Source of the DNA: Ascidiella aspersa
Lineage: Eukaryota
Length of the DNA: 64,000 bases
Assembly: GCA_963924565.1 (NCBI GenBank)
Contig: OZ004611.1
Coordinates: 19,592,001-19,656,000, forward strand
Direction of reading: 5' to 3'
Shown: positions 1,043 through 33,816 of the stretch, one piece after another
Layout: every line of letters begins with the position of its first letter
Position numbering within the stretch: the stretch's first letter is position 1
The notes under the pieces: generated by a model
Databases searched by the model: none
Seen by the model: only the letters and a program-made list of their open reading frames with translations
Told to the model about the DNA's origin: nothing
Made by a program: the position numbers and the translations under genes

Positions 1043-4000
1043 TAGTCAGGTTCACTATGTAATTTCGTTGGTTTTTTGTGGAGATTTGCAAACCTATACA
1101 TTTTTGGAAAGCTTAGGACATCAGGAATCTGAAAATCGATGTTCCCATTTGCACAAATGTTCCGAGGGCGGCCATTTTGGAAATTCAAGATGGCCACCAC
1201 CGAAAACCTATTTTTCGCAATATCTCGGCACACGGGCAACCTAGAGTGTTGATTTCAAGACCTATAACTACATTCTTGGGGACAAGGAATCATTTGGGAC
1301 CATATAAAAGGGTGTACGGGTACACAAATTCCCCCTATGATGATTTTAGGTAAAAATTAAAGCAACAACAAATCGGTTGAATATAATGGTACAGTTAAAA
1401 GTCTGTTTTGCATCAGCAATCTAATGTCTTCACCATCTACTCTTACTTCTTTTCAAGTAGATCATCTAACATGATATGCACATGGAGATTGGTTGTAACA
1501 GTTTGCTAAAAACTGTAGCCATATGCTAAAAGCAATATTCCACATTATCCGAAAACCTGTCCCCAGTCTGTCGACTTGACTACAACTCTATTCATGAACA
1601 TCATCAGACTGCAGGCTGTGGTGATTTAGGTGAACAACTAATGAACTAGAAGACAACAAATTTCAATTGAAATTACATTTATTGAACTTACAACACTCCA
1701 TATGATAAACATAATTATGAGCACCACACCGACCATTACTCAAATGTCATCATCACTATCGTCAGAGCAACCACCTGGCTGACAGTCCTCATCATTGTCA
1801 CACTGAGAGCTGCACAAACATAAGTCAGTGCAGGTCAGGTTGTTAGAACGGCAGGAGCACCTTTGCATCATGTTTGGGCTTGTATTTCACCTGCTTTTCG
1901 GATTTGAAGCCATGCATAAGGGTTTGGTTCACAGTGAGCACTGCTCTGTTGACGACAGTTGTTCTTTTTTCTGTCTCCAATGCCTCTGCCGACCCTATCA
2001 TAATCCATCTGATCATGGCATACAACTCTGCTGGAACATCACCCTCATCGCTGGTCACTTGTATGGAACTAGATGTTTTTTCCTTGGGATCAAATTTGTC
2101 AATGCATCTCCGCAGCACCTTTGCTGATTGGTAGATGATGCTCAAGTCATCCATATCATTTTCTGTTATAACAGATTGAACCATATCAGACTCGCATGCA
2201 TCTGGTGAATATAGAATAGAGGATTTCCTTCTGTCCTTTTGTCGAACAGAAGTTACATGGGGCAATTCCAAAAGGATTCTATCTTTAAGCCATCGTCGAC
2301 TGTATGCTGGGAAATGATTGGCTAACGCATCTGGTCCACCGAGCATGTTCATGTATGTTGTTTCTATATCTTGCATGGATAGGTATGCTTTATTTTGGGT
2401 TTGGCTGTCGATGAGGCTTATCAATTCAATCAAACAGGATGTTTGTAATGGATAGCCTTTTTCTGCGTAGTCCTTGCTACCTTTGACTCGCAGAACATGG
2501 AATACCTTTTTGGTCCAACATCGCTTGTGATACTGGACATCTATCGCGTGTGCATCAGATGGCGAGATGGATGTGTTTAATCTAGTCTGCAAGATGGGAT
2601 CTTCTGAAAGTTCCACAGCTTCACGTAGTGCTTTCCCACAGTTCTCTGTTCTTAAAGTGTATAATTGTTGTTCATTATTTTCCTGGCAAAAAAAGCAATG
2701 TTCCTTATTGAACGGAGCTGTTGCAGAGCGTGTGAATGGACTTGTGGAGGTGGACGTTGATGCCTCATCCATATCTATGCTTTTTCTCTTCTGTCCACGT
2801 TTTTTCTCCGAGTAGCTTCCAACTGACATATTGTACTCATGGCGTTCTTTGGCACGTTCTATCTTTACTTTGCATGTTGTATTTGAATAGCGAAGACGAT
2901 GCCAAACTGCCTTGTTAGCTTTTAAGCTGTCACTTGTTTCATCCTTTAACCGCCTGTCTATTTGAACATACTCTCCATCATGGAAGTTTGCCCTATCACG
3001 AACTGCTTCTAGCAAGCAATCAAATGAGTCCAGTTTGGACTGTTTCACAAGCGTTCCATTTTTAGTTGAAAATGTTTGACAGATCACGCACTGCTGCCAG
3101 TTGGTGGATCCAGGTGGATTGTATGAATGCCGTGCAGGAATTTCACTCATCTTGACTTAAAACCTGCAAATATAAAAAGGGAGATGAGTAGCTTTCAATC
3201 TACATCTCATCTGATGAATTTGTACCATTATTATGACCAGGGTAAGTATCAATAACACTAAATGAAATATCCTTATATTAGTTATTTATCTTGTAATACA
3301 TATTGTTAACTTTCAGCCGTTGATTTGTCTCACAACCTGAAATTATGGAAACTTACACTGGCTCCTTATGTACAATAATGATCTAAAACAAGTAGATCAT
3401 TTATTCCATGATGGTCCATCTGGTATTAAATCTCAGCTGGAAGTTAAAACAGAATTTCATATGTCTCCACACCTGAAAATAGATCTTAAATGGACAGTGT
3501 GATTTTGTTTTTATTTGCTGGTGCGTCATTCAGTGTAAATAGTATTTGTTAACAATCTCCTTAAGATCTGTACTTATATAACCAATCCTGAGAGAGTCAT
3601 CTTAGAGACTCGCCAGGTGTCTTTGCATCATTTTGGGTGATCTAAGGTGACTCTGTATCCCCAATATCGTAGATATGAATGATAAAATAACACAGTATTA
3701 AAATCATTGTTTTTGGAATATTGTGAGAAACAGTTTTTCAGTGACGGTGATAGTGTTTGGATGGTATGAAGTTTTTAAAAATCATCACAAGAGACATCTG
3801 GGTGCTTGTACATTATTTTAAATGATCTCAAATGATTCCTTGACCCCAAAAATGTAGGTAAAAGTCTTGAAATCAACACTCTAGGTTGCCCGTGTGCCGA
3901 GATATTGCGAAAAATAGGTTTTTGTTGGCGGCCATCTTGAATATCCGAAATGGCCGCCTTCGGAACATTTGTGCAAATGGGAACATCGATTTTCGGATTC

Positions 4001-4091
4001 CTGATGTCCTAAGCTTTCCAAAATGTATAGGTTTGCAAATCTCCACAAAAATCCAACGAAACCATAAAATTGAACATAGTGAACCTGACTA
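1043..4091 (-). mobile_element. Academ-like DNA transposon, internally deleted (non-autonomous)
   Basis: Termini TAGTCAGGTTCACTATG...CATAGTGAACCTGACTA; imperfect TIRs of ~270 bp (1043-~1310 and ~3815-4091); ATG on both flanks (1040-1042, 4092-4094). Internal ORF has CxxC and YHxxC motifs, plus an out-of-frame Cys-rich C-terminal fragment. Confidence 0.8.
1740..3150 (-). pseudogene. Truncated Academ-type transposase: N-terminal 435-aa ORF (1843-3150) joined out of frame to a Cys-rich C-terminus (1740-~1865)
   Basis: ORF contains CVICQ, CFFCQ and DAHAIDVQYHKRC. Another frame reads QRCSCRSNNLTCTDLCLCSSQCDNDED...DDDI*. No DDE/XPG core is visible between the two parts. Confidence 0.7.
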
Positions 4092-7035: not shown

Positions 7036-10000
7036 ATGAGTCATTCCGGCAGAGACCAGGATGTGAGTGACTTATAGTTGTTTTCAGATAAATGAGAATG
7101 TTATTAAACTTAAGTGTAAAGAATTAAAAAAATAACTTTTGGCGACATTAAATTATTTTAACGTTTTAACTACCTTGTAGACCTTTTTCGCAATAAGATA
7201 ATTTTGTCTGCTTTTAATTGAGTAGTCGACCAAAGCATTGTGGTATTATAGTTTAATTTGTCACGAATAAGAAACGGGACTTTTCTCATGAAAATACACA
7301 CAAGGGCGATCACAAATAACGGGGGTTATAAACTTTGTTTTTCCGCATTTACAGCTTCCTGGCGCTTACAAGCGATCTGTTGGAAAGAACGAGAGCAGAA
7401 GTTTGCCAAGAAGTGCATTCCCACCAAAGCCATCCAGATATACATCTTCGTCCTTTGTAAGTAGCCTTTCCACTCAAACCCAATCGCAATATTGAACGAG
7501 TATAGCTATAACGAATTGCCATGGTTTTAGCTGGTCCAAAACTATAGGGAGTTAATAAGGCTAATCTAATATCCATTAAAGTTACTTTAACCTTGGTAAC
7601 ACAGCTGGTTATGTCTGAAATATATTATAAACAAACACAGCCTTCGTAAAAATCATCTTAGACGATAAAATTGACTTAAAATGCTTCTAGTTTAAAGAAT
7701 CTTAAAATTGTTTAGAAAAAGTGTATAAAAGCGGGAATGAGATTAATACTGTTAAAACAACTTGTGTTTTTACCTAAAGGCAGGTTATGCGGTATTGGTC
7801 TTTCACAGAACCTGTGCCCAACGTCGACATTACAAAAAACTAAAGAATAAATAGGGATGTATGAATACGACGCATTGCGTGGGAAAGTTTACCAAACACT
7901 TGGGTATCCCTTAAACGATTTTCAAACTGATGTAAACATCCATCCGTCAAATTTTGTTATGATAAGATTGTGACAAAAAGAGACTCGAGACACTTGTTTT
8001 CGTGAAACGACGCCAAATGGAAGCGCCCTTCTAACGATAGTGTTCACGAAATTTTCTCTCATAGCGTTCAAGTTCATCGTTGTCGGACGCCCGATGCCGT
8101 TCGACCGGTTTTGACGTCACAATAGCATTTCTTACGCCCTCGGCTAATCAGAGAGGGATCACGCGCGTCGCGGGTGCGTCTCCATCCAAAAAAAAAAACG
8201 CTAGGAGAAAAACGGCTTACGCAACCTCTCTAGCCTTGCTGTTACGTAAACGCGTCGGCCAATAAATATTGATAGGACAAACTTGCGCATCAAAATAGAA
8301 AATGTAAGCCCAATTACCAAATTACTGATTTCTCTAAATGCGTATCCAACATAGCATGCTAGAGAAAACCGCTTTCTATTAGAAGTTGTTGGGTTTAAAA
8401 ATCACTATAGTTCTCAAATATTCTTTAGGTATGACGCAACCACCCATTACTTGCAGTTTTTCATTTATTTCATATACATGTGCAAAAACTAAATGGTACC
8501 TTATTGTTGCAGGCCAACTCTGACGATTTTGGTCCAGGGCATTTTAACTTTGACGACAGCGACACTTCAGGAAGGTAAGACATCGCGGTTAAATATATGA
8601 ACAAATTTCCTCATGACAAAGTGATTGCCTTTGCACTCTAATTGTACGCAAAGAATTAAATCACGAGGCTTACCAATACATCAAATTAAAATCATAACGA
8701 ACTCAAGGTGTTATTAGTAATTACTATAGAAATGTTTAAACTGCAATTGGAACAATTTAAATATGCTGAGGAAAACTATGGTTTGTTTCATTTGTCGCGC
8801 ACATAAAAACAACCGTCTTCACCAAGGAGAAATGTAAGACATCCAAAGTTACAAATCGATACCAGAGTTGGATTGATTACATTAATTTAGTTCAATTGCA
8901 ATTACAATTCATCTCTTAAACTTAAATGTTTCAATTACATTAAAACTGTAATTAATTGCATCAATTACAATAAATTACAATGGATCAAAGTTTTATATTG
9001 CTGCTGAAATATGGAAACGATGATCGATACTACTATGTATCGATAATTTTACTTTGTTTACTTTTTAAAAGTTGTTTGTGACATAACAGTGCTGTTTGTT
9101 GCATCACAGTCGATCTCGCAATGTCAGTACGTTGCCGAGCAGCGCTTATCCACGACACACGACTTCCGGGTCTTCATTCGCCAGCTCACAGCCACCAGCT
9201 CCGATTCCGGAGGGCAAGAGGAGAACGATATCGATGGGAGCCAACCATCACGCTCCCGGAAGACAGAGGAGTCGCGATCGCAGGAGGACACTGGACGCCA
9301 GGAATCAGCCACCGCCTTATACAGTAAGTGAAATGGGCATTTTTGTTTAAATAAAAAGGAGGAAAACTTATTGACTTAAATAAACAAGGGACGGAAAATA
9401 TTAGAATGAAATATTTTGTTGTAGTGATTGTTTGGTTTCGTTTTGCTAATTTGGTAACCATAATAAACTAAATGTAAAGTTAAAAGAAAATGCAAAGTGT
9501 GACAACTTTGCAAAAGAATCACCAAACCGATTTTTTTAATGTTAATTTTGACTAATTTATACAAAAAAAACTTAGATGCGATTATAAGGGAAAAAATAGT
9601 CAAAGCAATGTCTCGTGTAAGTAACGGTGATTTAGGTACATGGGCGTCAAGTATATGTTTAATGTTATAATAAGTTTCATCTGATAAACACGTTTATTGA
9701 CTCTTCGTCGTAAACAAGATACAAATATCCGCCGTACACGAGGCAAAATAAAACTTCAAGAGAAACCGACGGCAGTTAATTGCCGACGAAACAGCGCATA
9801 ATCACCGATTAGTTCACATCAAGGCGTGACGTGATATTTCGGCCCCGCGACACGTCATAAAGACACTCCTGCCCCCGTCTTTTCCGATCCTGACACAGCA
9901 GCGAGAAACACGACGGTTTATAACGGCCACGTTGGAGCAGTGAATCGATTTTGACGTTGATCTATGCTGGGAACGCCCCGGGTACCAGTTCATGGCCCGC

Positions 10001-13000
10001 CTTTAATTACCCTACGCGAAAAGCGGAACACGTTTGCCGTAAATCAAATTGAAAAGGCTCGTAAATGCATGGCGTACCTTTTGCGAATCTGAATCGTTTA
10101 TTAATCGTTTATAAAGGCGTCAAGCAAACAAACCTTTTTGCTACATTAAGTAGACTTTGCAATGAATATTATGCTAATAAAACCGTCCAGCTAAGAAAAC
10201 AATAAAGAGCTAAATACGCCTACAAAAAACTTAAACAGTTACAAAAAAATGAAAGCTACAACTATTAAATAAAAATGAAGGTCTTCCAAGTAAACCGCTT
10301 TTATAGGACAACGCACAGTGCAAACTAAATAAGCAAGGTTTGAAAAAGCTTATCACATTTTGCAAACGCCAAAACGCAAAACAAAAGAAAGCCGGTTGCT
10401 ACCTAATAGAAAATTAAACAAGAGCTTCACTCAATTTATATTACAGGTCTAGAACCGACAGTAAAATATGCGAATACCATTAAATCACAATAGCAGTTGC
10501 GCCTTAGTAAATCCAGATTCTCAATAAATGAGCACGCCCAAAAGTTTACCACGCATTAATGAGACTAAATCACTTTTTGCTGCCCGCAGGACATATTTTA
10601 GAAACGCTAAACTTTAATCCAGTAATCTGATTTTCTTCTCCTGACACCCTCCCATATTGCGTGGCATATCTTTGGGTTGCTGTTGGTTTGTCGCAAATTT
10701 TCCCAGTTGAAAAAACACCATGAAAAACATTTTATTTCGTATAAAAACGGAATAATAAAAACCAAAAACTTTCACTTCCATTTTGTACCTAAATTAGAGT
10801 TGTATTTATCAAATGACACTCTGGTTATCATATGTGCCATTTTGTACGACGGCAGTTTGTTAAGGTTGCATTGTATATTTCACATAAGGGCATTATAATT
10901 TTTTGAAATCTTTTAAATCTAAAAAAAAATCCAAAAATATTATTTGCTTTCAGATCAGCGATTCAACAAGACGAACGCTTTCCAGCGAGGATCAACACAG
11001 AATGGGCTCCGACGGTTCGAGCGTGTACAGTTCCGCCGACAGTTTCGGTAAGATAAAAACGGCGATATGCCCCTTTACTAGTATAGGAGCTATGTTTTGG
11101 GTGGTGTCAATTTGGCAAACTTTATTGTCTTTGAGTATTCAACCCCGATCAGAGCAACATGCAAATTAACTACTGCTCTTTGTAACTAGAACTAGCGATA
11201 AAGAAAAACTCGCCCTTAAAAATCCTAGGCTAGCATAGGTTGTTTTCTATATTGCAACCTAGCGCACTCCTTACTACCGATTATGCATGGTGAGGTTGAC
11301 ATCCCTTTATCGGAGTTGTGTGTTTAACACAATATTGTAATCTCCTTAAAGTGGGTTCAAAATAGTTATTAACTTTCCGTTGTTTTAAATCATTTTTCGG
11401 TTAATAGATTCTCAAGATGACCACGACGGAAGATACCCACCGAGACCACCAAAGCCGGTAAAAAAATGGATATGTACTTCAATTTTCTTGAACATTTTTT
11501 AAGCTGGTATACTAATGCCCTTGGATTGCCTAAACCCTAATCTAATGAGATCAATTTATCTCTGCAGGAAAAGTACATGAAGCGGGATGCGTCTTCTTCG
11601 AACTTTACGGGGCAGTATTACCCTGATCCAATGGAGGTAAAACGACCTGTTATTTTTTATCTTGAATCTGCGTGTGCAGGATGATAACGTGTCTAAAATC
11701 ATTTTCACTTGTTTTTATAATTATGTTTAGGAATAGCGTGGAGTGTGTCCGTTAATTACTCAGCAATTGGAATGTGTTATAGACAAACACATTAAGGGGG
11801 TAGTCATTGTAAAAATAGTAACTCTGAAGCGGTAATTTGAATAGCATTGCAAAAGCACAAGAGAGAGCCACTTACAGATTTGTTATGACTACTAGTGTAG
11901 GCCTACTATATTGTACCAAAACTGTACCAGCAGAGAATAACTTGCACAGCAGCTAGTTTAAAATGCAAAGGGTAACACGAAACTTTCAATGTTATTTAGA
12001 GCGCCGATATGAGCAGACTACACTCGGGGTACTCTGAAGACACGAACACAACCTTGACTGGCGGCGATAATCGCCCAACTGATATCGATGAGCTGGCAGA
12101 GTACTTCAACAAGTAAGCTCTTTTAATCGTTTGTGGCTAATTAACTACAGCAAAACTGGTTAAAATAGCTGTATCGAAAAGAAAAATGGCCAACCCAGCA
12201 TTGCCATTTAAAGCTTAGAACTAAACAAGAAGTAACAATAACCTTGTGCTGACACATTCTTTATCGATTGTGCAGAAAACTTGACGACGTACAAAGACAA
12301 GCGGATCATGCTCTAAGTGAGCTGCAAGATGGTAGACGCGATAGGGTAAGAACAACCAGTCGATTTATAGATAGCAATTGTTAGATGTGTATGTATGTAT
12401 GTGTCCATGATTGCATGCTCTTTGATTTGTATAGCTGTTTTCGTTAATTTAAATGACAGTTATATCCAACAGTTTTTGTTTAGCGTTTGAATGTAATTGG
12501 ATGGTTTCCTCGTTCACATATATTTTAGAATTATGCTAATATTAGACTATTCTTTGACTATTCTTCTGCTATAACTTTAGAAACTGACACCTTTTATATA
12601 CAACTTGTAATAAACACAGTTTCTAGTGTGATGTACGTTTTTTAAGGTCATATAGAATAATTTAAGACTTACTGAAAGAGGAACTATTGCTTCGAAAACA
12701 AAACCACTATTTTACCGGTCAATGTTTGGCGGACAGAATTACGTTCTCCCAACGTGTATATAAGCGCAAAACGAGAATAACAATATACCAACGTGTATAT
12801 AAGTGCAAAACGAGATACCAATATCCCTTTAACTAACCTTAGTAAAATCTTTTATCGCTGTTTTACAGTCGGTCACCGACGACTCGTCAATGTACAGCTA
12901 CAACAGGGGTCCTCCGGGAGGGGGATCTTACAACAGGAGAGGAAGAGAGCCTTCTTCCAGGGCAGTTCGTCCCAGCAACCGTGCCGCTGGAATCTCGTCG

Positions 13001-16000
13001 GATGCATCCACCATCACTCCGACGAACAGCAGATCATTTAGACCGGTCAGTTTTCGCCCGAGCTGAGTTTGGCCATAACTTATGAATGTGCATGTGGGTT
13101 GTTTTAATGATAAGAGCCTTTAAGGATGTTGTGAGGTTTCGCTATGTCTTTTAAGCTTAACAAATAATTTTTGAGAAAAAAACGGTCATTAAATGAAAAG
13201 TGTGTCATTTCCCTGAAATAATGCAATTTTAAGTAACTCTATCTTAACATCTCCATAGCATTACCCTATGAAAAGGTATGCGTGGTACTTTAATGTGGGT
13301 TTTGTCACTTTTGAAAGTGACGAATTTAAAGATTTTCGACTTGTCAATACATATTTTGTCGGTAAAAAATACCCTGTTGTTTTCTCTGGAAGAAACTTTA
13401 AGTCTGTAAGACATTGGCGACCCGCTAAGCTTAACTTAATCCAAATGCCACACTCTGGAAAACAGCATTGCAGCGCTTTAGAGTCACAACTTCTATGTTT
13501 TTAGACTGAGTCGTCCAACCAAACGGAGAGCAGCATCTCGGCAGTGCGCGACGAACTGGACAGCCTTAAGTTCCAGCTGTCGAAAGGATTGGAGAACTTG
13601 GAAAGCCAGGGCGCGTCGTCGCACAATATGGAAGAGATGGCCGATTACTTCAGCAAGAGACTCGAAGAATGCCAGAAGCAGGTATGAACAATTAACTATA
13701 GCGTTGATGATAACTGCACAAGGCTCTATGTTGTATTTTCCCAGTTTTGTTACATTCCTTAATGAGATTTTCTTTTTGTCAAGATCTGTATTGTCAAAAA
13801 CTGTATTCAATTTTTTTTTTTTTTTTTATATCTGTCTCTGTTTGCACAACTTTTCCAGATTGTTCAACAGAATAGAGGTCATTAAAGGTGCCAAGATTTT
13901 AGTTCAAATAAATAGACTGCAAAGTTATAGGTACATTATTCGTGTTTTGAATCGTTTAAAGAATCGTTTCTGTTGTTTAGGTTTATAGCGCCGTCAATCA
14001 CGTTCAAGGCCAGGTTGGAGAAATGCGTCAGCAACAAGCACCTTCCGGAAGGGTAAGACAATTTGAATTTAAATAAACATTCTCCTGAAACAACCTAAAA
14101 TACTTGAAAATTTGGTTTGCACAAATTGACCACTACTTGTTCTATGAAAGGTGTTTCGTCTTAACACGTCGAAGTAGTATTTTTGGTCACAAGGTCCACT
14201 CATCGAGCGTTTATTTTTACCCTCTGCCGTCACTTAAATATCGGCGTGTCGCACGTTTCAGGGGCGTCGTGGAGGGGAGTGGGACGCCAGCCAGGAGGAA
14301 TACTACGACAGCAGCGACAGCGGTATCGGTCCGCGAAACTTGACCATCCGGCCGATGACCAGGGCGCACGCCGAAGCAGTTAACAACGCTTGTGAGTTTG
14401 TAATTTCTCCCTTGGTATTTGTGCCCGTCTTAAAAGTACTCTCGGCCCCGGCGATTTTAGTGCAGTTAGCATTTTACGCAGTTATGTGCAGTGGATTAAC
14501 TTTAAGTACGGTTCAGCGCACAACAACGTTCGTTGGCCAAAGTAGCAGTCATTTTATAACATAGTCATTAAATTTATTTAAATGTTGTTCAGAGAGATAT
14601 TCAGTATGTCACAATGAGTTAACGCAGTGGTTCCTAACCGGGATGCCGCGGCGCCCTGGTGTGCCATTTCTACAGCTCAAGGGTGCCGATAGATATTTGA
14701 GAATATTTAAAAACCTGATTTTTGCTCAATTGGTACAACTATTTGTTTACGATTAGAGACCATTATATCAGATGACATTTTCCAACATGTTTAAAGTTGA
14801 TTGTGTTTTGCCAGTTCCATTTATAGTGACATTTCAGTAAAATACTCAACAAAAATTCCAGTCGGGGTGCCGAAATTCTATTTGTTATTTTTTAGGGGTG
14901 CCGTAAGGTACAAAAGGTTACGAATCACTGAGTTAACGCATCATTTTCGCAATTCGACCTATTTGTGTTAATAATTCCTAACGCGCAAACCATTTTAACG
15001 ACCTTCAATCTTATCCAGCCATCGTCACACCATCGGCGCCTCCAGCTCCCAGAAGACGCCACGACCAGCGCTCGGATCGCCACGACTACAATCCTCCGAT
15101 GGCAATGCATCCCAACGAGGATCAGGAATCGTTCGCCAGGATGGACGGCATGATGCCGCAGGAAAAGATGGAGATGGCCGCTCCGCCTCCGGTGTACCGG
15201 GACGCGGTGCCGAGGAACAAGATGATGGCAGACGATCTCGGATCAGACGACGAAGAGTTTTGGGACGACTTTGAAGAGGTGAGAGTTATTTTGCGTCATT
15301 TAAATAGGGACTAGCGATTTGAATGCTTCTCGGGTATACGAGGAGTTTTGGGACGAATTTGATGAAGTGGGAGTTACATTGTGTCATTTATATAGTGGTT
15401 AGCGATTTGAATGCTCCTCGGCTACCAAAATTTCGAAAAATTGTTTACGGAGTATAACCTTTTTAGGTTTTGGTATCCAGACGGATCCAGTAAGTTCAAA
15501 AGAGGTGATAAACCTGATGCTAATTGTTAGGATTTGTAAACTAAAGTGGGCGATTTCTTAAGGAAACTTTAACATACGTCCATGAACTTGCCATATACAG
15601 ATCACAATGCAGTTTAATTTGCTGCATTAAAAAACTTATTGTTAACAAAAAGCTCAATCAAAACGTATATTCAAATACAAATGTTGGAAAACGGTCAACA
15701 AAAAACAAATAGCCACTGCGAGTATACAGTCGAAATTTGACAAGAAACAACGTATTACCTCTGTTAAAAACTTTCCTTCGACGTTTATCATATAGTCGAA
15801 GTTTTGCACGAGTTTTAACATCTTCGTGCTTTACGCAGTTTATCGACGACGACACCCCAGCTCCGGAAACCTCGATTCCTGTCCCCAAGATCACGCACAA
15901 GACCAACAACTATATGTACCAGGTGGTCTACGTGGTGTACATTATGTCGTTTCTCGCCTACGTCTACGTGCGAATCCAGTTTACGCTGGACGCGCCCGGA

Positions 16001-19000
16001 TTGAATCGGATCTATTGTATTGTTGTCGCCATCTTGGAAATCATCACCGCCCCATCGCTCATTCTCCAGGTAAAAATCTTTTATGAACCGTTTTTCTATT
16101 TTCTTCGTAATTATGATTTCAAAAAAAAATATTTGATTTTTTATATTTTTGCCGATCGCAACAGTTAATATTTATAGACCAAGTCGCCTTTAATTTTAGT
16201 ATAGTATATAATTTGTATATAGAGGCTGAAGCGTAAGTTAATCGGAGTTGTTTAGCAGAGATTAAACATAATTATCACCCACTTTGTATAAAGCATTTAC
16301 TCGTTATTTGTGCAATGCTGTTGTACAAGCCACGTTACGCCGCCCTTGTAACGCGTTAAATTTTCTTCAACATTGCATAACAAACTGGAAGTAGACGTGC
16401 CGAAATTATAGCGGCTGACATTTCGGCCAACTAATTGCGCTTCCATATAAGCGCCCCAGGCTACAAAACACGTATATGGGTTTTAGCTGTGACTCAGCTC
16501 TGTTTGGTTTATATCTTCGGATTACGAGATTTCCAAGTAAATGCTCCACTGGTGAACTTTAACCTGGCTTGTTTTTTATATTTTGACGGCGTGTTAGCAT
16601 TTATGAAAGGCCACATACTTGGGAGGATACCGAGCTATTAATTTGTAAAGCGATTCATGCAACTAAAAAAATGCAAACCTGTTAAAAGTTAATAAGAAAT
16701 ATAGTGAACTGTGAATAATTGCAAGCCTACAATTCCGATAAAAGGATTTTTTTCATAACAAATCTAAATTGTTAATTGAGCTTCTTACATAAACAGTTTC
16801 AACCTTAAAAATTCAACGTGTTATATTTAGAAGATGTGAGTGTTATTTAGTCTATAAATTTCCCGATATAGGACGTACAAATTGAAACATTTTGTTAACA
16901 GGGTTTGTGTCTGTGGCGTTGGATTTCACGTGACCCTCCCCCACAAGATGCATTCGAAAACCCCAAGTTCCATACCGCCCGTATCATGGTTCCAACTTAC
17001 AAGGTAATTGATCAAGCAATTGTACCCTGTTTTGAGAAAAAATACAGTTAAAATAACACCAGGAAACAAGTTTAAATCATGAGAAAATTTATTGTGTATG
17101 AAGGGGTCCTATACATAAAAAACTCCTATACATACAATAAAATGTAGAGGAAACTTTTTGTTTTTAACTTAGATCAATCTATAGGCTACAAAACAAAAGG
17201 GTAACGAGTAGAAATACTTTCTAGAATTTATACAGACATTTAATAAGTTTTGAATTCATGAAAAGAAAAATTGGCGAATCCAAATTCACTAACCGTTTTA
17301 AGTATCTAACAGTTTTTACAATCCATCCTAAGCTTTACGAATTGTTCTAAAACAGTTTTTACAATCTATCCTTACTAATTGTTCGTTTGAATACTTAAGT
17401 TTAATCGAACGGCCGCTTTTCGTTGTCGCTACGCAGGAACCGCTTGAAGTGGTAGCCGGAACAGTGCACGAGATTATTCACATGGATCTTCCTCCGTCTT
17501 TCCACGTTCACGTCTATGTGCTGGATGACGGAAGAAGAGAAATGCTTGAAAACTGGGTCCTCTCGAAACGAACAAAGAGGTGAGATTTGTTTGGTGATAG
17601 CACGTCATTTTAGAATACCATGTGTGTGCTTTTAATGCATGAAAATGTTTTATTTTACGAAAAAAAAAGTCTTCCGTGATGAAAATAGTTTCAAAGTGGT
17701 ATTGTTTTACTATATTTTATGTTTGTGAAATTTTTACACGTTGTTTTCAAATTTATATGTCTATAAGTCCAATGTTAGTCTTAAAACATATAAAAGTAAA
17801 TTTACAGAAATATATAAAGTAGCTCCCGTAGTAATCGATGGACAAGGTTTCGATAACTACGGTTTTTTCCATGTTTTAAATACAATAGATCAAAAAGTTT
17901 ACTTGGGAAACAGATTTGGTTCAAGAATTTAATTTATTTGAGGCAAATGTCGAACTTTTCATTTCTCCAAACTGAGTCAACTTGACAAATATGTGTGCTG
18001 CGTAATAAAATTACAGCAATGACAACTCTTCTGTTTTTTATCCAGATGCGTGTACCTGCATTACGTGGCCCGACCCAAACTGCCTGGTGTGCCTCACCAC
18101 GCTAAGGCCGGAAACATCAACCATACCCTACATTACATCTTCGACGACGCCTACCCCGAGCAAGAGTGCGTAATCATCTTCGATGCCGACTTTATGCCTA
18201 GGTAAATCACAATCAAACATCTCCACTAGACGGTATTCTATCTTTTTGACTGTCATTGTGGGGTGAGACTATTGGGTAATTTTGTTTAATATGCTGTGCA
18301 CGGGGATAGCGTTGGGTTAGAACGGCGATACTTAAAATACAGCAAGGTATATCCTATCTCATAATATATGAAGACGCTTTTTAGAGACAAAGTATGGCAA
18401 TTTTGTTGACCATATGTGACATCAATCTCCAATCATTTTCTAACGTTTTACTATCCATAAAAAAAAAGCATAAACTTCATTTTCGCCTTCACAGGAGAAA
18501 CTACCTGCTGCGTGTGTTGCCCGTGTTCTCGGAGAAGCGTACCCGGCCGCTGGCCCTCGTGCAAACGCCGCAGTTCTTCTACAACGTGAACCCGGAAGAA
18601 GATGTGTGGGACCACTTGAACGTCTCCTTCTTCCATCGTATCGAGCCGAGTCTGGATCGCTGGAGCGCCGTCAACTGTTGCGGAACCAACTTCGTGGTGC
18701 GCGCCGACGCCCTAAAGGACGTGGGCTACTTCCCGGTGGGCTGTCTCACCGAGGACACCCTACTATCCCTCAGGCTCTGTACCATGGGCTGGGGTGTGGC
18801 TTACCATCACGAAGTACTCGCCATTGGCCAATCGCCCCACGAGATCACCGAGATTTTCAAGCAGCGTTCTCGTTGGTGCAAAGGCAACTTGCAGATCTTC
18901 CTCGACGAATTCCCGCTCATGCAGTCCGGTCTGTCGCTGTCGCAGCGCATCTTCTACAGTTCGTGCGGCTTCAACTACTTCTGCGCTTCCATCTCGATTC

Positions 19001-22000
19001 CCTTCTTCCAATTGGTGCCGGCCTGGGCTATCTTCTTCGGTCTCTGGCCCGTGTCGGAAATTGGACTCGAGTTCGCGTTCGCCTTCTTCATCTACTACCT
19101 GTTGGGCAACGTTCTGTTGCTCTTCCCACCTCCCGGCTTCGGCATTCGTGACATGTGGAACGGTGAGCTGGCCTCCACCAACCTCTGGTTCACCTACTTC
19201 AATGGTGTGCGCCGTATCGTGGGAACGAAGCTGCTAAAAGGAAAAGGTAAGACAGCAAATTCCTATTACTACTGATTTGCAAATATGCCGAAGGAATAAA
19301 CTATGTACCCGTGTACGCTTTTCATATCCACAGTATGTCAGTTTGGTTAACGGCTGTAATAGAACGTGTTCTCAATGAGTTAGTATTGTAAATCTGTCTT
19401 AGGCTTATACTTTTTATATAATTAGTATAAGTCGCTTATTTTCTGGGCAAAAATGACTGGTCAAGTTAATAAGAATTGGTTTAGGAGGGCGTTTTTTTCA
19501 ATTACTGAAACTCCGTATATAATGTACAGTGCACATCATACATTGTTGATTTATCGTTAATTTGTGTCGGTTAAATTCGGTTAGAAACACAAATAAAATT
19601 AAAATTATTTCAGGCGAGCTGACATTCAAAACGACCAAGAAGAAGACAGACGAGGACGAAGAAGGTTCCAACGTTGGTTTTCAGAAAGAGGACGTGCGTG
19701 CCTGTTACATGCATTTCATTATGTTCTTCATCATGTTGGTCACCATTGTTTACGCCATCGTCCAAGGTGAGTAGCTGACATTATTTAATTCTGTTACCAT
19801 CGTTAAGGACAAGCATCCGAAATTGCTTAATTTTGCTGTTTTTGTTCGTCCGATAAGACATTTTTTACCTTTATTGCGAAACGAATGGCACCTAGTAGTA
19901 TATTGCGTGGAACAGCTTGTTTAATTTCTGTACTAAATCTGCTTTCAAATGAACAGTATTAAATTAGGTTAGTTTATTAGACGTGGTCACTACTTCTTGT
20001 CAGCACATCGAAGTGATTTCTAAATCTTGTATCCTTGAACTCTTAGTACCCTGAGACGCCTTGTTTTACCACTGATTTTTTTCACAGCCGCCATTGCCAA
20101 GGACGTGAAGTTCTACTTTTACTACATGTACATGATCGGTATGTCCTGGGCCCTGATCAACATGACCCCGTACCTGATCGTGGTAATCTACTGCTGGTAC
20201 CGGGTTCGAATCCCGGGCCTGATCGTCGCTTGCTTCAGAAACGTACAGCTGCTGCTGCGTCTGGTTTGCGCTGCCCTGATCATGGTACAGGCTTTCACCA
20301 CAAGAAACTTGACGGAAAACTTTATCTGCCCCCACGAATATACAGGAGTATTAGGTGAGGCCTATAACTACTAGGATACGTAGGATCAAATATGTAGAAC
20401 AATAAATAAAACGCAAGAGACAAGCACAGCAGAAACTTAATGTATGCGCACTTATACACCAAAAAGGTCGAGTATATCGACATCATCTTATTTAGGACGT
20501 TTCGATACGAACTTGTATCATTTTCAGTTAATGTCACATCTTAATCAGGAAGCTGTCGATCTACTCGACGTTTTTGGCTTTGCAATTCATTATCAAGCTA
20601 CATTACAGATCCGTACATATTGTTATCAAACTTATACACCAATTCTGAAAAGTCGAACTCAAATACTCATTGATTGGTACGTTTATAGGCTAAAAATAGT
20701 ATTTTAGCAAGATCTCTTTAACACTTTACTCCCTACAGGCTCAAGTCCTTTGGCTATGGTGAAGACAATGGACGCGGTTTCCAAGCTTCAAGTAAGCAGG
20801 AACTCTTTCTGGCTGCTGGGGCTTAAGGACGATTTCTACACGATGCAGCAAATCAAGAGGACCGCTTGCGAGAAGGACGAAGTGCCAATCATCGTATTTT
20901 TCATGCATCCCTCGCAAGGACTTGCCCTCGACTCAGAAGCTGGTCATTACATGCCCGAGCACAGAATTGGTGAGTGCAGTAGCTTACTTGTAACTTAAGT
21001 TACAGGACCGGTAAAAATCGCGACATATACTATAATATAACGAACTGGAGTTACTGCTGTGCATGCTACCTTAGTTAGAATGTAGGTCAGATTTTTTAGT
21101 ACTGTGGCCCAAACCGGTTAAACCGTTTTTTTAACTTACATCTTAATAGAGAAAAAAAAGAAACCTAATGTGAGGTATAAACTTTGCGTTTATCGGCATA
21201 TTGTGTATTTATACTGTATGCTCTGTAAGTAAATTTGCCATCGACAACGATTAAAATATACCAAAATATCCAGTTTCCCAAATAATTAAAATATTAAAAC
21301 AAAGTTTCTGTCAATTTTAAATCGAAAAGTTATCAGACCTACATTTTATGGATATATAAACACAAAAATTTACAAGTTTTGTGACATTTGACAGATACTT
21401 GGGAGGAATACGACAAAAAGATGTTGAACTACGCCGAGCATCTGTCGGACGTTCCTTCGTTAATTGTCATGGAACCGTCCTTGCTCATGCACACGTTTAA
21501 CTCAAAAACGGACTACCACAACACTGATTATCAGGTAACGGCTTATAGCCTGAATTCTGAAATTGAATAGTAACATGCTTTGTAAATTTGCTGCCAACAC
21601 AAGTACAAAAAATGTGTAAGCATATCACGTTAACAATGTTTAAATTGTATAATGGTACAGCATGTGGTACAAATCTAACAGCACTAGGAAGTTATACAAC
21701 TGATTAACAGTTCCCAAGCAAAATCATCTTAGAATATTAAAATCGCCAGAGTATGTTTTAGTATTTGTAATACATTCCCATAACGCAACTTTTTCAACAA
21801 TATATGAATGTCTTCCGCAGGTTGCCTTCTCGCAGCGCGTCGCCGACGTGGTGAACATGTTTCCAAAGTCGTGGGTTTACGTGGACGCTGGCAACGCCAT
21901 GTACCTACAGTGGCAGGTCAACCTGGACCACGTGATAGGCGTCATGAAGAGCATGCCGCCCGACATCCGCGGCTTCTCGATCAACGTCGGTTCGTTCGTG

Positions 22001-24019
22001 AACAGCACTTTCAATAAGAACCTGGCCGAGGAGATTCACTGTCAGACCGGGCTGCATTACATCATTGACACGTCGCGTAACGGCGGCAAGTTTTCGGAGA
22101 GGTGAGACCAGTGTTTGAGTAGCCGTTAAATTCTGTCGAGGCTACTTTCTTTAAAACGTGTATCGTTGTTCTTACACAAGGTTCTTTAACCATCCCAACC
22201 CTTAAAAGTGAGCTACCACTTTTTAATCGTTTTTTCACACAACGTTTTTATTTTAATGAAATCTATTTCGAGAATCCGATCTTGCGAACTATTTACGTTT
22301 TTTAGTTTATTTTATCATTAAACAGACAGGGTCGAGATAGAAATATATTGATAGGTTTTTGTATAGAAAATAAAATGTATATATTCATAGGTTTTTGTAT
22401 GGGCTTTAAATAAAAACCCTCAAACCCATTCTTATTCAGTGGGTCTCGGTATTGTAGGAAACAGAGAAAGGCTTAATACGGTGGCAGGAGCAAACAGTTA
22501 ATCGCGAATCATCTAACTCTAACGCCTTTTTCTAACCAATAATGCAAGTCAATGCGCTGAAACTGACAGCTCTCCTTGGTTGCTGCAGGTCCCTTGAACA
22601 GATCAACCTGTGCACCTACGACCCACCCTTTGTCATCAACGGCAGTCACCCGGCTTGGGAGGTCGGAGCGAACACCAAGACCCTGACAGCGCAGAGCATC
22701 TTAACGGGAGCCGGCGCCGTGAAACCAGTTGAAACTCCAACCGAAGGTATGCTTTTATTTGCTCACTCTTTTGTTTTACAGTCCAGTTTTTGCTAGAAAA
22801 AAAAAAAACGAAAATCTGATTTCGAAAGTTCTAACTTGTAAGACAGAAAATATTGAAATCGATTTTTGTAATAATAGCGGTTATGTTTGGGAATTTATAG
22901 CCCTATATTATACATATAACCCATTAGACATTATGCTGCTTGTAACGTTTTAAAGTAGCATGTCAGCTATTAACAAATCTGTTCCCGCCTCAAATTTCAG
23001 GCCGTACAAGAGTTTTAAAATATAACAGCTAGTATACTTCGCGCGTTTACAGGCTTGTTAAAAACCAAAAAACATTTTTTTATCCAATAGATCAAACCTC
23101 GGTACGTTAATGCCCACGTAAAGTTAAGCAAAAAGCAAACTTTTCTTTTTCGTCGTTGAAAACTAACACGAATTTTACGCGCAGCATCAAATGCCAGCGA
23201 AAGAGCGACTGAATAAATTTGCATTTTATTTCCAGCTGTCCCAGCGGCCAGGCGAAAGCGATGGGTTCTGCAAAGCGGCAACACAGGAAACGAGCCAGTG
23301 TTGGGAGAAGGTCCAGCAGCCGGCGCAGGTAAGCCACTAGAAACTCTGACTAAAATTCAAGTTCTGACTAAATTGGTTAAACTGCTAGCCAAAGGTTGTC
23401 GGACTTAAATGTCCCAACTACCTTTTTTGGTACGTATCTCTCTATACTTTCCAAATCGCAACTGGTTGTAGAGAAACGTTGATTTGATACTTCAATGAAG
23501 CCGTATTCGTACATTAGGTGTAACCTACAGTCATTTAATGAGATTTAAAAAGTGCAAACTTGTCACACGAAAAGTAGTGTACAAAGGGCCACCCCACAAC
23601 CGCGCGATTACACGTCGTAGTTTGTGGGAGAGTAATCAATCCCAAGCTTACAACTTTTGGGTTGATTAGCAACGAAACTAATACTAACGCTTTTCCCCAC
23701 AGTAAACACGGGCACCGGCGACAGTTTCTACTCGTACGGCGGCGCGGCCGGCACGGGCGTCAACACCGGCACCAACTACGACTACACTGCCGACGGCACC
23801 GCCACGTCAAGTGCGCTCTGCGTCACCACCGAGACGGACGGCCTGGACGCATACGCGTGGGTCAAGACGCCGGGCGAGTCGGACGGGCGCATGTTCACGT
23901 CCGGTACCTACCATCCATGCCTGATGAACCACTTCTCCGAGTGCAGCGAGACTTGCCCACAGTACGTGCCCAAGATATCCGGCGAGTTTCAGCGTTCCGA
24001 CACCTGTTCGTGCAGTTAG
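7036..24019 (+). CDS. CesA: Tunicate cellulose synthase (GT2 + C-terminal GH6 fusion), 27 coding exons, ~1546 aa
   Basis: Phase-consistent GT-AG exons: 7036-7062, 7355-7456, 8513-8574, 9110-9323, 10954-11047, 11408-11457, 11568-11636, 12000-12112, 12276-12345, 12869-13045, 13505-13681, 13981-14052, 14262-14391, 15019-15278, 15839-16069, 16902-17003, 17437-17579, 18046-18201, 18495-19246, 19614-19766, 20088-20354, 20739-20969, 21395-21534, 21821-22101, 22589-22746, 23236-23328, 23703-24019 (4641 nt, open to TAG). Cellulose synthase motifs: VPTYKEP, VLDDG, HAKAGN, FDADF, QTPQ, TED, QRSRW. GH6 motifs: YVDAGN, IRGFSINV, IIDTSRNG, DAYAWVKTPGESDG. The first exons are less certain than the core. Confidence 0.95.
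8060..8270. promoter_or_regulatory. GC-rich intronic candidate cis-element (AP-2 + CRE)
   Basis: TGACGTCA at 8112-8119, GCCCTCGGC at 8136-8144, CCAAT at about 8259, within CesA intron 2. Confidence 0.35.
12749..12826 (+). repeat. Two-copy ~39-bp tandem repeat
   Basis: CCAACGTGTATATAAG(C/T)GCAAAACGAGA occurs twice. Confidence 0.75.
14625..14930. mobile_element. hAT-type MITE in CesA intron 13
   Basis: CAGTGGTTCCTAACC...GGTTACGAATCACTG; 8-bp TSD AGTTAACG on both sides; GTGCCG subterminal motifs. Confidence 0.8.
15252..15422 (+). repeat. Tandem duplication of the CesA exon 14 3' end and donor region
   Basis: GAAGAGTTTTGGGACGACTTTGAAGAGGTGAGAGTT...TAGCGATTTGAATGCTTCTCGGG is repeated with divergence at 15340-15422. 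Confidence 0.8.
15839..20354 (+). other. CesA: CesA GT2 catalytic core plus transmembrane region (exons 15-21)
   Basis: D,D,D,QxxRW signature (LDDG, DAD, TED, QRSRW) spread over exons 17-19. Two hydrophobic helices precede the GT domain and about five follow it. Confidence 0.95.
20455..20620 (-). repeat. Family A hammerhead-type repeat (degenerate core) in CesA intron 21
   Basis: Minus strand ATTAA-CTGAAAA-TGATAC-AAGTTC-GTATC-GAAAC-GTC, followed by an inverted partial copy at 20563-20620. Confidence 0.6.
20739..24019 (+). other. CesA: CesA C-terminal GH6 cellulase-like domain (exons 22-27)
   Basis: VMEPS (canonical EPD), YVDAGN, RGFSINVGSF, YIIDTSRNG, WVKTPGESDG; Cys-rich C-terminus. Confidence 0.9.
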
Positions 24020-27000: not shown

Positions 27001-27315
27001 TGGCACAGAAAAAAGGGTTTTATGGCAGACATATTTGTCGTTGTGTGTTACGTGTTACAAGTAATATTCTAGTTGAAGGACGTTTTTGAAGAACAGCAGA
27101 CATATATAAATTGAAGGCATTCGGTAATTTCCCTAATTGATGTCGAAAACACAATACAATGCAACGCATTGCTTATACGCTACAGAAACATTTGTTAGCA
27201 TGCGTGCAGCTTTTGCTTGCCATATTCTGCGATAACCTCAAAATACTAAACAGGTAAACAGACAGATGTGAAGTTTGAGCAGAACATCTCTTTGAGGGCC
27301 TAATTTACTTAAAAA

Positions 27316-30300
27316 TCAGGGCGGGGCATCTTCGTTTTCCGATAGATTTGGCTGCACCCGGTGAATGGTTTCGGTAGACTTTAAATCAGCTACCAAGTCT
27401 TTCAAAATCGACGCCTGGCTACAAGACGTGGTGGGCACCATCGTGCTACTGAAATTGGCCAGCCTGGAACGCTCACTAGTGCCACCCGGCGACAAATTTC
27501 GAAAACGCGGCTTGCCGCTCGGTGTCAGTGCGGCGTCATCGTCGTCGCTCAACGACACGATGTCGGAATTGAAGTTGGAGCTGCTGCTTGTGCTGCTACT
27601 AGTAGAAGAGGCGTCCATCGCCAGTCCACTGTCATTTGTCTCGGTTCGCTTTCGACCATCTTCGTCGGATGAGGTTTTGTACTCTCCCCTAGTTTTGGAT
27701 AAATTAGGTTTAAACTTTTAAACGAACATTGTGCAAAGTGTGCACGCGCAAATAAAGAAGAATTTTAGATATATTCGCAAAAGCGGGAGATTTGTTTTAC
27801 AGTGCAGTTGTTGTATCATATTGTAGGCTTTATATCTGAATATTTTCCCTTTTGGTAATAAAATGACGAACCTACGTTTAAAAATTTACAAAATTTGATT
27901 TCTGAGTTGCTAAAATACAAAAATCAGTAACCCAAACCCCAGACATTAGCCGTAAAAATATTATATTTTCAACCTTTCGGTACACACATTTTTATAATTT
28001 TTCTGTAGAAATTTTACGGAAACAGAAATAACAATCAGTGCATTTAAAACCAAGAAAAACAGTATAAAATCAGGGCGGGTTTGAACTAAAATCGAAACAT
28101 ATGTCGACCTTTTACCAATGTCAAGTTTCCTCGCAGTTCAAAGTCTTTTAAAATTCCGGAACATAAAATTTTTACAATATTTGGTAGCTATACGTGTGAA
28201 AAAAAGGTTTCGGCAATAGTTCTATTTCTAATCTGTTACGTCACTGAGGACTCCAGGGGCTCCAATCTGTTAAAGAAAGACTCGTTAAAGAAAGTCGCAA
28301 TCACTCGTTTACTCACTGATGTGCAATGATGTAGACGCCGATAAAGGAGAGAATACAGCCGAAGATGAACATAAAGATCCGGTCGAAAGCGACGCCGTTA
28401 AACTCCTTATAGAACATAGCGCCCGCCAGGATCGCGCTCACAGTGAAAAAGATAAAGTTGACCGGCACCACGTCTGAGACGTCGTACAGCTGCATGGCCT
28501 GCGATTTGGACAGCCAATGCACGTTTTTATTTCTGGCCGGGAGAAAGTTAAATTTGACGAAATTTACGCGCGCATTTATTCCCGGAAGTTTTTTAACTTG
28601 TCCAGGGTTCTAAAACTGTGAAAAGTTTTGATAAAATTTGCGGAAATACAGTCAGAAAATTGCGACAAATGTACATCAGTGAAAAAGCGTTAATATACCC
28701 AAGCAAAATGCCACTCCAACGATAAACGTACGTAAACAAAGATTTTTTTGTTTTTTTACTAAAGCAAAAATTGAATAGAAAAAACAGCAGGTGCCATCTT
28801 GGTGTATTTTGTTAGTGTTGATCCCATATCACGTCAATAGATTGACTCAAATATTACCTTTAGCCGACACGAAAACGGTTCTACAGACGTTTTAATAAAA
28901 CACATTTCAGATACAACGACGAAGTTTAATGTTGGCTTGGGGAGTTCAATGTTGTATAGCGTAATAGAAAAAAAAGAGGGACCGCGTTACAAAAAACACA
29001 ATGGGTCTTTAGCCCTAATTACGTAAGACCCATCCCTGAACGTTTGCTTTTTCGATTCTGCCAACTTGTGCTGGTATGTTATGGCGAGAAATTAGACTCG
29101 TCGTGCCATGACGTTGATACCTGGTCTTTGCGATCGTGTATGGAAATGTCTATTGTCGGATGTACAGCCTCGTTATTAGACAGTCATTTAAATTTAGGTA
29201 AAGTCTAAAACGCCCTGTGCTGAACGGGGTGCTGTGGATTGAGCTAGGATCAGTAAAAGTGGAAAATGGAGAAACAATGTTATTTCGGAAAAAAGTGCTT
29301 GCAGCTTGTTTTTATTATTTTAACTTTAACAGGTTATGTTTTTTTCGTGGCAAAACATTTTATAATCAGTGAGTACAGTTTATGCCACAAAGCCTTAGAA
29401 CACCCCTTAAAACGAAGTTATTTACCCAAAGAGTCACCATGGACAAAATGATTAAGCTGGTATGTGTTGACTAAAGTTAGTATTTGTATAATTGCATGTT
29501 GATGCCCATTGATTCAGTTCAGTCTCTGTATGATGTTTTGTTGTTAATGCAATTAATGGTAACTATTTTAGATATAGTTTAGAAGCATGGTTACACTTTG
29601 GGACCCTTGCAACTTAATATAACAGGTAATAGAACAAACATTTAAGAAAAAGGTTTAGGTAGAATGTCGCAAAGAGTCTCGCACTTACCCGGTTTAGAAA
29701 TTTAATTTGTGTAGCAGTGGTTATCGGTAGGATAACGAGGCAAACCCAGAACACGGCGTTCAGCACTTGGGCCTTGCCCTGGAAAAAGCTTTCCGAAATA
29801 AGGCTGGACAGAGCCTTAGAAGCGATGACCGTAACAGAGGCGATAATTCCCACCAGAAGCAAGAGCACCACCATGTGTTCGTTGCCGCGTACATACCTGC
29901 GAAACAAGATATCGATATAGAATCGATCGCGATATGCGGTCGTTATATTTTTGCTAGCAAAATAGCCCTGGACTTTCGTTCAGTGGAAAACGATTCACAA
30001 TCATGCCAATGTATCTTTTCTAACATTTACCGTTTATGTTTTCATTTGACAAGAGATGCGCTGTCAGAACAAAGTAATAAAAAATCACCTCTGTATAAAA
30101 TATGCCCTTGGATTGACTTTAGTATGTTTTTTATGTAGGAAACATTTGGTATTAACGCTTTGTGGACAGATAACACTTTTCAGGGTCAAAGGAAACACTT
30201 GTACAGCAATAATAATATAATATGACAAAAACCCACGCCGATGTGTCCTAACGTTGTCAAGATACGACAGTTTTAGTTGAAGCGGATGTACCATAGTGGA

Positions 30301-33300: not shown

Positions 33301-33816
33301 AGATAACACCGAAATTAAACTTCGAAGCACAGATTTATAGTAATAAACATATTTTTTTGAACTCGTTGGTATTTTTGTAATATGGCTATACAATAAAAAA
33401 AACTAAAAAATATGGCTTCTTTAAAGTTAACGTTATGCCAAGCTATATCCAATAAAAAGTGTCTTTATTCAGACACGAGTGAGATTAGACACACCTCGCT
33501 TTTATTTCATTTTTACTACGCCATGTTTTGGTGCCAAATTAAAAATTAGTATTTCCTCAGTAGAAGAATCCGGGGTCATGGTATACCTGTTATGGGCGGT
33601 CTTTTGAACGCTGAGAGATACACTAATCAACAGATTGCCTCCGACGGCCAACGACATGCCGATCAAATGGCGTTGATTCCATTTGGGGAAAGGCGACGTG
33701 GTATTCGTAACGTTCGACATTGACGTATTACCAGAAAGTCCAAAGAGGGGTCCGTTATTCAGAGCAGTGTTCAGCACTTCTGACGTGAGGTTTGTCAAAT
33801 TTCCTAGCAGCGCCAT
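27316..33816 (-). CDS. NIPA-like magnesium transporter (closest in motif to NIPAL2/NIPAL3), 7 coding exons, ~464 aa
   Basis: Exons on minus strand: 33587-33816, 33012-33240, 32221-32366, 29689-29896, 28317-28498, 28240-28266, 27316-27688. NIPA motifs: GNLLISVSLSVQK, WWWLGMMLMVLGEMGNFMAYGFAPASLVAPLG, QIKFLNRAMQLYDVSDVVPVNFIFFTVSAILAGAMFYKEF. Ser-rich C-terminal tail. Confidence 0.9.
31897..32160. repeat. Divergent inverted pair of minimal-hammerhead repeats (family A) in a NIPA intron
   Basis: Minus copy CTGATGA-TAATAC-AAGTAC-TTATC-GAAAC-GTC (31985-32016); plus copy CTGATGA-TGATAC-AAATAC-GTATC-GAAAC-GTT (32078-32109); shared downstream sequence. Confidence 0.7.

Follow-up and report, generated by a model that had tools for sequence, protein, structure and literature searches.

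ENaC, LAPTM5 and Commissureless are membrane proteins whose PY motifs make them clients of the ubiquitin ligase NEDD4, and binding has been shown for all three. In yeast, the NEDD4-family ligase Rsp5 (Rsp5/Art4) ubiquitinates the chitin synthase Chs3, a membrane enzyme of the processive GT2 kind, in its N-terminal cytosolic region for ESCRT sorting (PMC5156543). In SCAMP3 and ARRDC1, a PPxY and a PSAP motif share one cytoplasmic region, and SCAMP3 is a multi-pass protein with an N-terminal PY motif (PMC9882979). Here we describe a cellulose synthase gene (CesA) of the ascidian Ascidiella aspersa, lying in a 64,000-nucleotide stretch of assembly GCA_963924565.1 (contig OZ004611.1, positions 19,592,001 to 19,656,000; hereafter the window). 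A first-pass annotation of this DNA noticed two PPxY motifs and one PSAP motif in the N-terminal tail of the enzyme, and read them as a late-domain set that had replaced the bacterial mode of control. Our comparison suggests a narrower reading, in which one motif, PPVY (PY2; the other, PPPY, is PY1), is probably a real WW-domain ligand and might place surface turnover of the synthase under NEDD4-family control in some lineages. Whereas Chs3 relies on an arrestin adaptor, the PY motif of CesA would be in the enzyme itself, an enzyme of bacterial origin.

The gene is that of the cellulose synthase already known from ascidians, and its N-terminal tail of 539 residues is spliced together from 14 exons (Table 1). 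All introns of the model are GT..AG, and the 1546-residue frame has no internal stop. Exon 19 matches GT2 families of Pfam and exons 24 and 27 match GH6, in line with the synthase domain and fused C-terminal GH6 expected of a tunicate CesA. The protein is orthologous to Cs-CesA, Ci-CesA, Phmamm.CesA and Mt-CesA, with which it shares the GT2, membrane and GH6 parts and a homologous tail; its catalytic exon is 94-96% identical to those of the named Ciona, Styela and Molgula CesAs. All 14 of the tail's splice junctions are present in spliced contigs of run X3, a run whose kind is not on record and which we take to be RNA-derived because its contigs are spliced; raw RNA reads of X4 also cover three of the 14 (3, 4 and 2 reads). 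Thus the N-terminus of about 540 residues built from 14 exons, as first annotated, is borne out, and its exons are included in the mRNA. No hydrophobic segment occurs before residue 565 (maximum hydropathy 0.15), where the first membrane-like segment starts, and the tail is therefore predicted to be cytoplasmic. High-copy interspersed repeats lie within introns 13 and 21 (window ~14620-14930 and 20480-20620; depth in thousands in X1 and X2).

All three motifs are in frame where the first-pass annotation had placed them, starting at residues 131 (PPPY), 457 (PSAP) and 509 (PPVY, 15186-15197). The tail had been called disordered, but it is not wholly so, since two conserved blocks (residues 237-254 and 337-400) resemble amphipathic helices. 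AlphaFold2 run on P0030 with a 26-row alignment gave a mean predicted local distance difference test score of 41.8, with about 25 in the tail and a core that was poor too, and hence carries no information on disorder. It had also been cautioned that short motifs arise by chance in proline-rich sequence. Proline makes up only 8.3% of this tail, but the chance of a single motif is still not small: under five shuffle schemes of 40,000 shuffles each, P was 0.13-0.34 for at least one PPxY, 0.007-0.053 for at least two, 0.015-0.095 for at least one P[ST]AP, and 0.0002-0.005 for at least two PPxY together with at least one P[ST]AP. The combination is nevertheless a post-hoc pattern that would not by itself stand up to a genome-wide view over many motifs. 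Moreover, [LP]PxY has 1730 matches across human disordered regions (PMC11565833), a frequency that itself counts against assigning a function to PY2. Since the pattern was picked after seeing the sequence, and since [LP]PxY is so common, conservation must decide.

The comparison covered 63 stored tail pieces, each 60 residues or longer, of which 23 are non-larvacean rows and 40 are larvacean-type rows, the latter often partial or near-identical. The 23 rows represent 11 non-larvacean species-level entries: the window CesA, L010, C. savignyi, P0004, P0032, P0001, P0006, Styela, M. tectiformis, P0078 and P0079, with P0004 and P0032 being two records labelled Ciona intestinalis. Outside these 11, motifs were taken by eye from published supplements for Phallusia mammillata (PMC10986139, supplementary file 10), M. 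oculata (PMC6523144, Fig. S1), Botryllus, Botrylloides and Salpa thompsoni; rows for the last three come from a dotted alignment and are to be read with care. In a tree of 15 core sequences, the window CesA pairs with L010 (97/94) within a clade that also holds Ciona, P0001 and P0006 (99/99), with Styela, Molgula and larvacean-type rows outside; it thus groups with ascidian CesA rather than with CesA.b, a second type treated below, or larvacean CesA. From their sequences, P0001 and P0006 appear thaliacean-like, P0001 resembling the Salpa thompsoni row. A phmmer search with exon 14 against 1.84 billion representatives returned three matches, one a true orthologue (P0085, from the species of L010) and two driven by repeats; the ESM Atlas gave no usable match to residues 210-440 of P0002.

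At the PY2 site, an [LP]PxY motif lies 34-43 residues before the conserved-core anchor in 7 of the 11 non-larvacean orthologues, and the site reads PPIY in Phallusia and LPPY in M. oculata (both by eye). PPVYRD is identical in the window CesA, L010, C. savignyi and P0032, where the surrounding stretch shares only 16/71 to 26/89 positions; a conserved run of six has a permutation P of 0.003-0.026, depending on bounds. The changes seen, V to I at the x position and P to L at the first position in Molgula, are in these sequences those that an [LP]PxY motif tolerates, and a P/T difference between L010 and L011 lies just beyond the core. The flank has Asp at +2 in all seven copies and non-polar residues at +3/+4 in six, a flank expected at about 0.06 from composition. 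In deep mutational scanning of PY peptides, either Leu or Pro was accepted at the first position of type-1 ligands of NEDD4-WW3 and YAP-WW1, and an acidic +2 and non-polar +3/+4 were preferred (PMC11565833). P0006 carries a PPRY with the same flank as PY2, displaced to -93. By its conservation and flanks, PY2 is probably a real WW ligand, and the WW/NEDD4-type reading first offered for the motifs as a set survives for PPVY only. It shares with ENaC, LAPTM5 and Commissureless an [LP]PxY core, an acidic +2, non-polar +3/+4 and a cytoplasmic tail, in CesA a predicted one whose accessibility is also a prediction; binding by those clients is shown, that by CesA predicted.

We tentatively propose that a NEDD4-family ligase would dock through one of its WW domains on PPVY, membrane-proximal in the tail, and would attach ubiquitin to lysines close by, with 502 and 520 as candidates. 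CesA would then leave the epidermal surface by ordinary endocytosis and ESCRT-dependent lysosomal turnover, and how many terminal complexes there are, and how long they last, would depend on this turnover. PPPY would serve as a dispensable helper site, and PSAP would be a recent and probably optional or incidental one. Such control would operate in phlebobranchs and Molgula but not in styelids, salps or larvaceans, which either lost it or lack it, and would be layered on an older tail core. The control of yeast Chs3 by Rsp5 provides a precedent. The genome holds two genes in which several WW matches adjoin HECT-like exons (Pfam confirms HECT in one of the two exons tested) and a TSG101 gene with UEV and Vps23 core.

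We rate this lineage-limited NEDD4-family control somewhat short of an even prospect, and several observations pull against it. PY2 is absent at its site in 4 of the 11 entries (Styela, P0078, P0001 and P0006); Botryllus, Botrylloides and Salpa thompsoni keep a proline run without the Tyr (by eye); and no PY motif was found in any of the 40 larvacean-type rows, which also had no P(S/T)AP. Tyr is in any case well preserved in this tail (10 of 16), the tail has 15 conserved runs of five residues or more, PPVYRD among them, and the orthologues are related and hence are not independent events. Nor can the type-1 flank separate NEDD4 from YAP or other WW proteins, the genome having 29 WW matches.

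The strongest competing explanation, which we regard as a real possibility, is that the motifs are by-products: PPVYRD would be kept as an SH3 or EVH1 polyproline site, as a Tyr phosphorylation site or for the way it packs close to the first membrane helix, while chance would account for PPPY and PSAP. The retained proline runs of styelids and salps that have lost the Tyr fit this account, as do the sizeable shuffle probability of at least one PPxY and the element common to copies of site 1, aromatic-[ST]-[IV]-S-D, which has Phe in Phallusia and two Molgula rows (by eye). On the other hand, the Leu/Pro swap, constant Tyr and acidic +2 across Molgula and phlebobranchs follow the WW type-1 rule and not the SH3 rule, and the same pattern reappears elsewhere in the P0006 tail. 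In a second alternative, PY2 does bind a WW domain, but one that belongs to a scaffold (MAGI, KIBRA, YAP or dystrophin/utrophin), which would anchor or position the synthase on the cortex rather than mark it for destruction. We consider this unlikely, even though type-1 flanks suit YAP-WW1 equally and WW matches abound, since a membrane protein with a PY motif on its cytoplasmic side is in most cases a client of the NEDD4 family. The cellulose fibrils of Oikopleura are templated by cortical F-actin (PMC3071929), which is in keeping with a cortical anchor, yet Oikopleura, where that templating was shown, has no PY motif.

The late-domain reading fares worst. PPxY and P(S/T)AP do occur in one predicted cytoplasmic region of the window CesA, as in SCAMP3 and ARRDC1, but they are not conserved together: P(S/T)AP is present in 2 of the 11 non-larvacean orthologues (the window CesA and, unaligned, a PTAP in P0006) and in Phallusia, and is absent from L010 and all three Ciona entries. 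PPPY lies 326 residues from PSAP and becomes APPF in Phallusia. PY1 itself is conserved above its surroundings only in part (the count in Table 1 is over the seven stored entries whose sequence reaches this site; for L010 the exon with PY1 is outside the sequence compared). By eye, Botrylloides and two Molgula rows have no prolines there, although in the Molgula rows an aromatic-T-[IV]-S-D element, with Phe as the aromatic residue, persists. The type-1 flank, with its acidic +2 and non-polar +3/+4, is missing from every PY1 copy, and PY1 does not have the alternative Pro at +1 either; by these comparisons PY1 is weaker than PY2. Of the conservation across tunicate CesAs on which the first-pass annotation had staked its proposal, we thus recover that of PPVY, part of that of PPPY and little of that of P(S/T)AP, and in the sequences compared the three motifs do not behave as one set.

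It is accordingly very improbable, in our estimate, that PY and PSAP form a SCAMP3/ARRDC1-like set (see also PMC8402826) that recruits TSG101 directly and so buds CesA-bearing vesicles into the tunic, be it in Ascidiidae alone or, by convergence, in the P0006 lineage as well. Phallusia does keep both PSAP and PPIY, the PPRY and PTAP of P0006 are only 10 residues apart, the joint chance of the motifs in the window CesA tail is low, and SCAMP3, with its N-terminal PPAY and PSAP, drives vesicle budding (PMC9882979). However, the P(S/T)AP of CesA is not conserved past its closest relative and is missing from L010, which groups with the window CesA; the window CesA and Phallusia are close, so their common PSAP may be plain inheritance; and a P[ST]AP arises by chance in shuffled tails at the rate given above. 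In ascidians, terminal complexes have been described from the plasma membrane of the epidermis, and a shed synthase would presumably lose its UDP-glucose supply. A still broader scenario seems to us hardly probable: after horizontal transfer, CesA would have been domesticated by an exon-built tail of eukaryotic docking motifs; in Ascidiidae, and by convergence in one thaliacean-like lineage, PY and P(S/T)AP would recruit NEDD4 and TSG101 directly, so that vesicles carrying synthase bud into the tunic; and tail-less CesA.b would be the unregulated counterpart.

Cyclic di-GMP (c-di-GMP) gates catalysis of the bacterial enzyme rather than its turnover, and Streptomyces CslA is from the group often proposed as donor. 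The window CesA shares the GT2 core, QxxRW and the FxxTxK gating loop with bacterial BcsA and CslA, and similarity to solved BcsA covers residues 574-949 of P0002 only. It differs from them in its C-terminally fused GH6, in a tail without homologue there and in having no PilZ domain: neither a Pfam match nor the signature RxxxR ... [DN]xSxxG was found in it, so that it does not belong with c-di-GMP-activated BcsA. The PilZ of Streptomyces CslA is only partial, and this enzyme turns over UDP-glucose even when c-di-GMP is absent, though better when it is present (PMC11022532). A search of genome contigs for related bacterial loci gave 50 pattern matches and no relatives. The suggestion that ubiquitin and ESCRT control replaced PilZ control does not hold in general. 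Styela and larvacean CesAs have neither a PilZ match nor a PY motif, and because such lineages and an apparently tail-less CesA.b exist, PY-dependent control would not be a general PilZ substitute. This second, diverged CesA lies at G000:C7:28499872-28516327 (-) (loci L005-L007) and has extra introns in the catalytic region. Ahead of the core anchor its first two coding exons supply about 20 residues, an arrangement that by eye lines up with the Phallusia CesA.b model in the literature. A tail profile found nothing in 30 kilobases spanning the CesA.b 5' end and about 26 kilobases upstream, while the same profile finds nine L010 tail exons above threshold; from the genome sequence we infer that CesA.b lacks the whole tail. 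CesA.b is recorded in four phlebobranchs with low epidermal expression, and the two proteins are said there only to differ in size (PMC10986139).

Table 1. Features of the CesA gene in window coordinates
Feature	Position	Strand	Remarks
Ascidian CesA gene	7036..24019	+	27 exons, 1546 aa: tail, GT2 synthase, membrane helices, C-terminal GH6; from model, Pfam, splice junctions and identity
N-terminal tail, exons 1-14	7036..15278	+	539 aa; predicted cytoplasmic
PY1, PPPY	9309..9320	+	aa 131-134; [LP]PxY in 5/7 orthologues covering the site; APPF in Phallusia; no type-1 flank
PPRPPKP	11437..11457	+	aa 177-183; matches ELM LIG_SH3_PxRPPK_7; in phlebobranch and thaliacean-like rows, not Styela or Molgula
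Helical repeat 1	12090..12300	+	aa 237-252; intron-split; predicted amphipathic
RPxNRA, first of two RPxxRA copies	12965..12985	+	RPxNR[AP] in 15/15 tails
Helical block 2	13544..14010	+	aa 340-395; intron-split; resembles repeat 1 by eye; common to larvacean CesA2
DSSDSGIG, then second RPxxRA	14301..14366	+	[DN]SSDSGI in 13/15 tails
PSAP	15030..15041	+	aa 457-460; common to Phallusia only; unaligned PTAP in P0006
PY2, PPVY with flank RDAV	15186..15209	+	aa 509-516; conserved island that fits the extended type-1 pattern of WW ligands; Lys502 on one side, Lys520 on the other
Catalytic exon 19	18495..19246	+	GT2 (Pfam); QxxRW at aa 873
FxxTxK gating-loop motif, retained	19625..19642	+	aa 1005-1010; no PilZ signature after it

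Other tail motifs are more widely kept than any PY motif. Among 15 tails scanned, two [IV]RPxxRA copies occur in 12, and DSSDSGIG with the twin RPxxRA extends from ascidians to larvacean CesA2. DSSDSGIG is likely, from its sequence, to be a phosphorylation-dependent docking site. The beta-TrCP phosphodegron follows the pattern DSGxxS/T; we rejected DSSDSGIG as such a degron, since Pro or Gln follows rather than Ser/Thr at 2-3 residues. The two helical blocks look like an internal duplication and are candidates for synthase self-assembly, although blastp found no internal repeat of them in any of four tails and the likeness rests on inspection. PxRPPK, an ELM class for the C-terminal SH3 domain of GRB2/GADS (PMC10767929), is present in 7 of the 15 tails, all phlebobranch or thaliacean-like; Oikopleura CesA1 has PxRPxK twice. 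Judged by these distributions, the tail is an old core of other motifs with later lineage-limited additions. Some records differ within this region. P0031, the published Ci-CesA (BAD10864), has about 280 fewer mid-tail residues than P0032, without PY1 and both helical blocks, and its join sits at a short repeated dipeptide, pointing to a cloning artefact or an isoform. Annotated isoforms of Styela clava (P0003/P0024 versus P0023/P0025) differ by 57 residues including helical block 2, which suggests that this block is alternatively spliced there.

Elsewhere in the window, a transposon-like element (1063-4061) holds an open frame of 437 codons (1843-3156, -) with no Pfam match, set between inverted arms that are each about 290 bases long and 89-94% complementary. 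A NIPA-type magnesium transporter gene (~27300-33900, -) lies downstream of CesA, tail to tail, and an open frame at 60880-60900 (-) has PTAP and then PY.

The gene and the kind of control are each already known, and their combination appears to be new. A full-text literature search, with passages of PMC10986139, PMC6523144, PMC13390645 and PMC3071929, found no account of the tail motifs, although it left out Matthysse 2004 and Nakashima 2004, either of which may discuss the tail. Among tunicate CesAs, PSAP is particular to the window CesA and Phallusia. DSSDSGIG, the twin RPxxRA and the twin helical repeats seem undescribed and make better candidates for the module that served regulation or assembly in the ancestor. 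PY2 bears on how CesA, the only cellulose synthase of animals, may be regulated without the bacterial PilZ switch. A conserved, high-quality PY motif makes possible a single-residue (Tyr to Ala) test in tractable Ciona or Phallusia, with the apparently tail-less CesA.b and the Tyr-losing lineages as natural controls. If the proposal is true, CesA would clearly exemplify how newly acquired short motifs can tie a transferred enzyme into the trafficking system of an animal.

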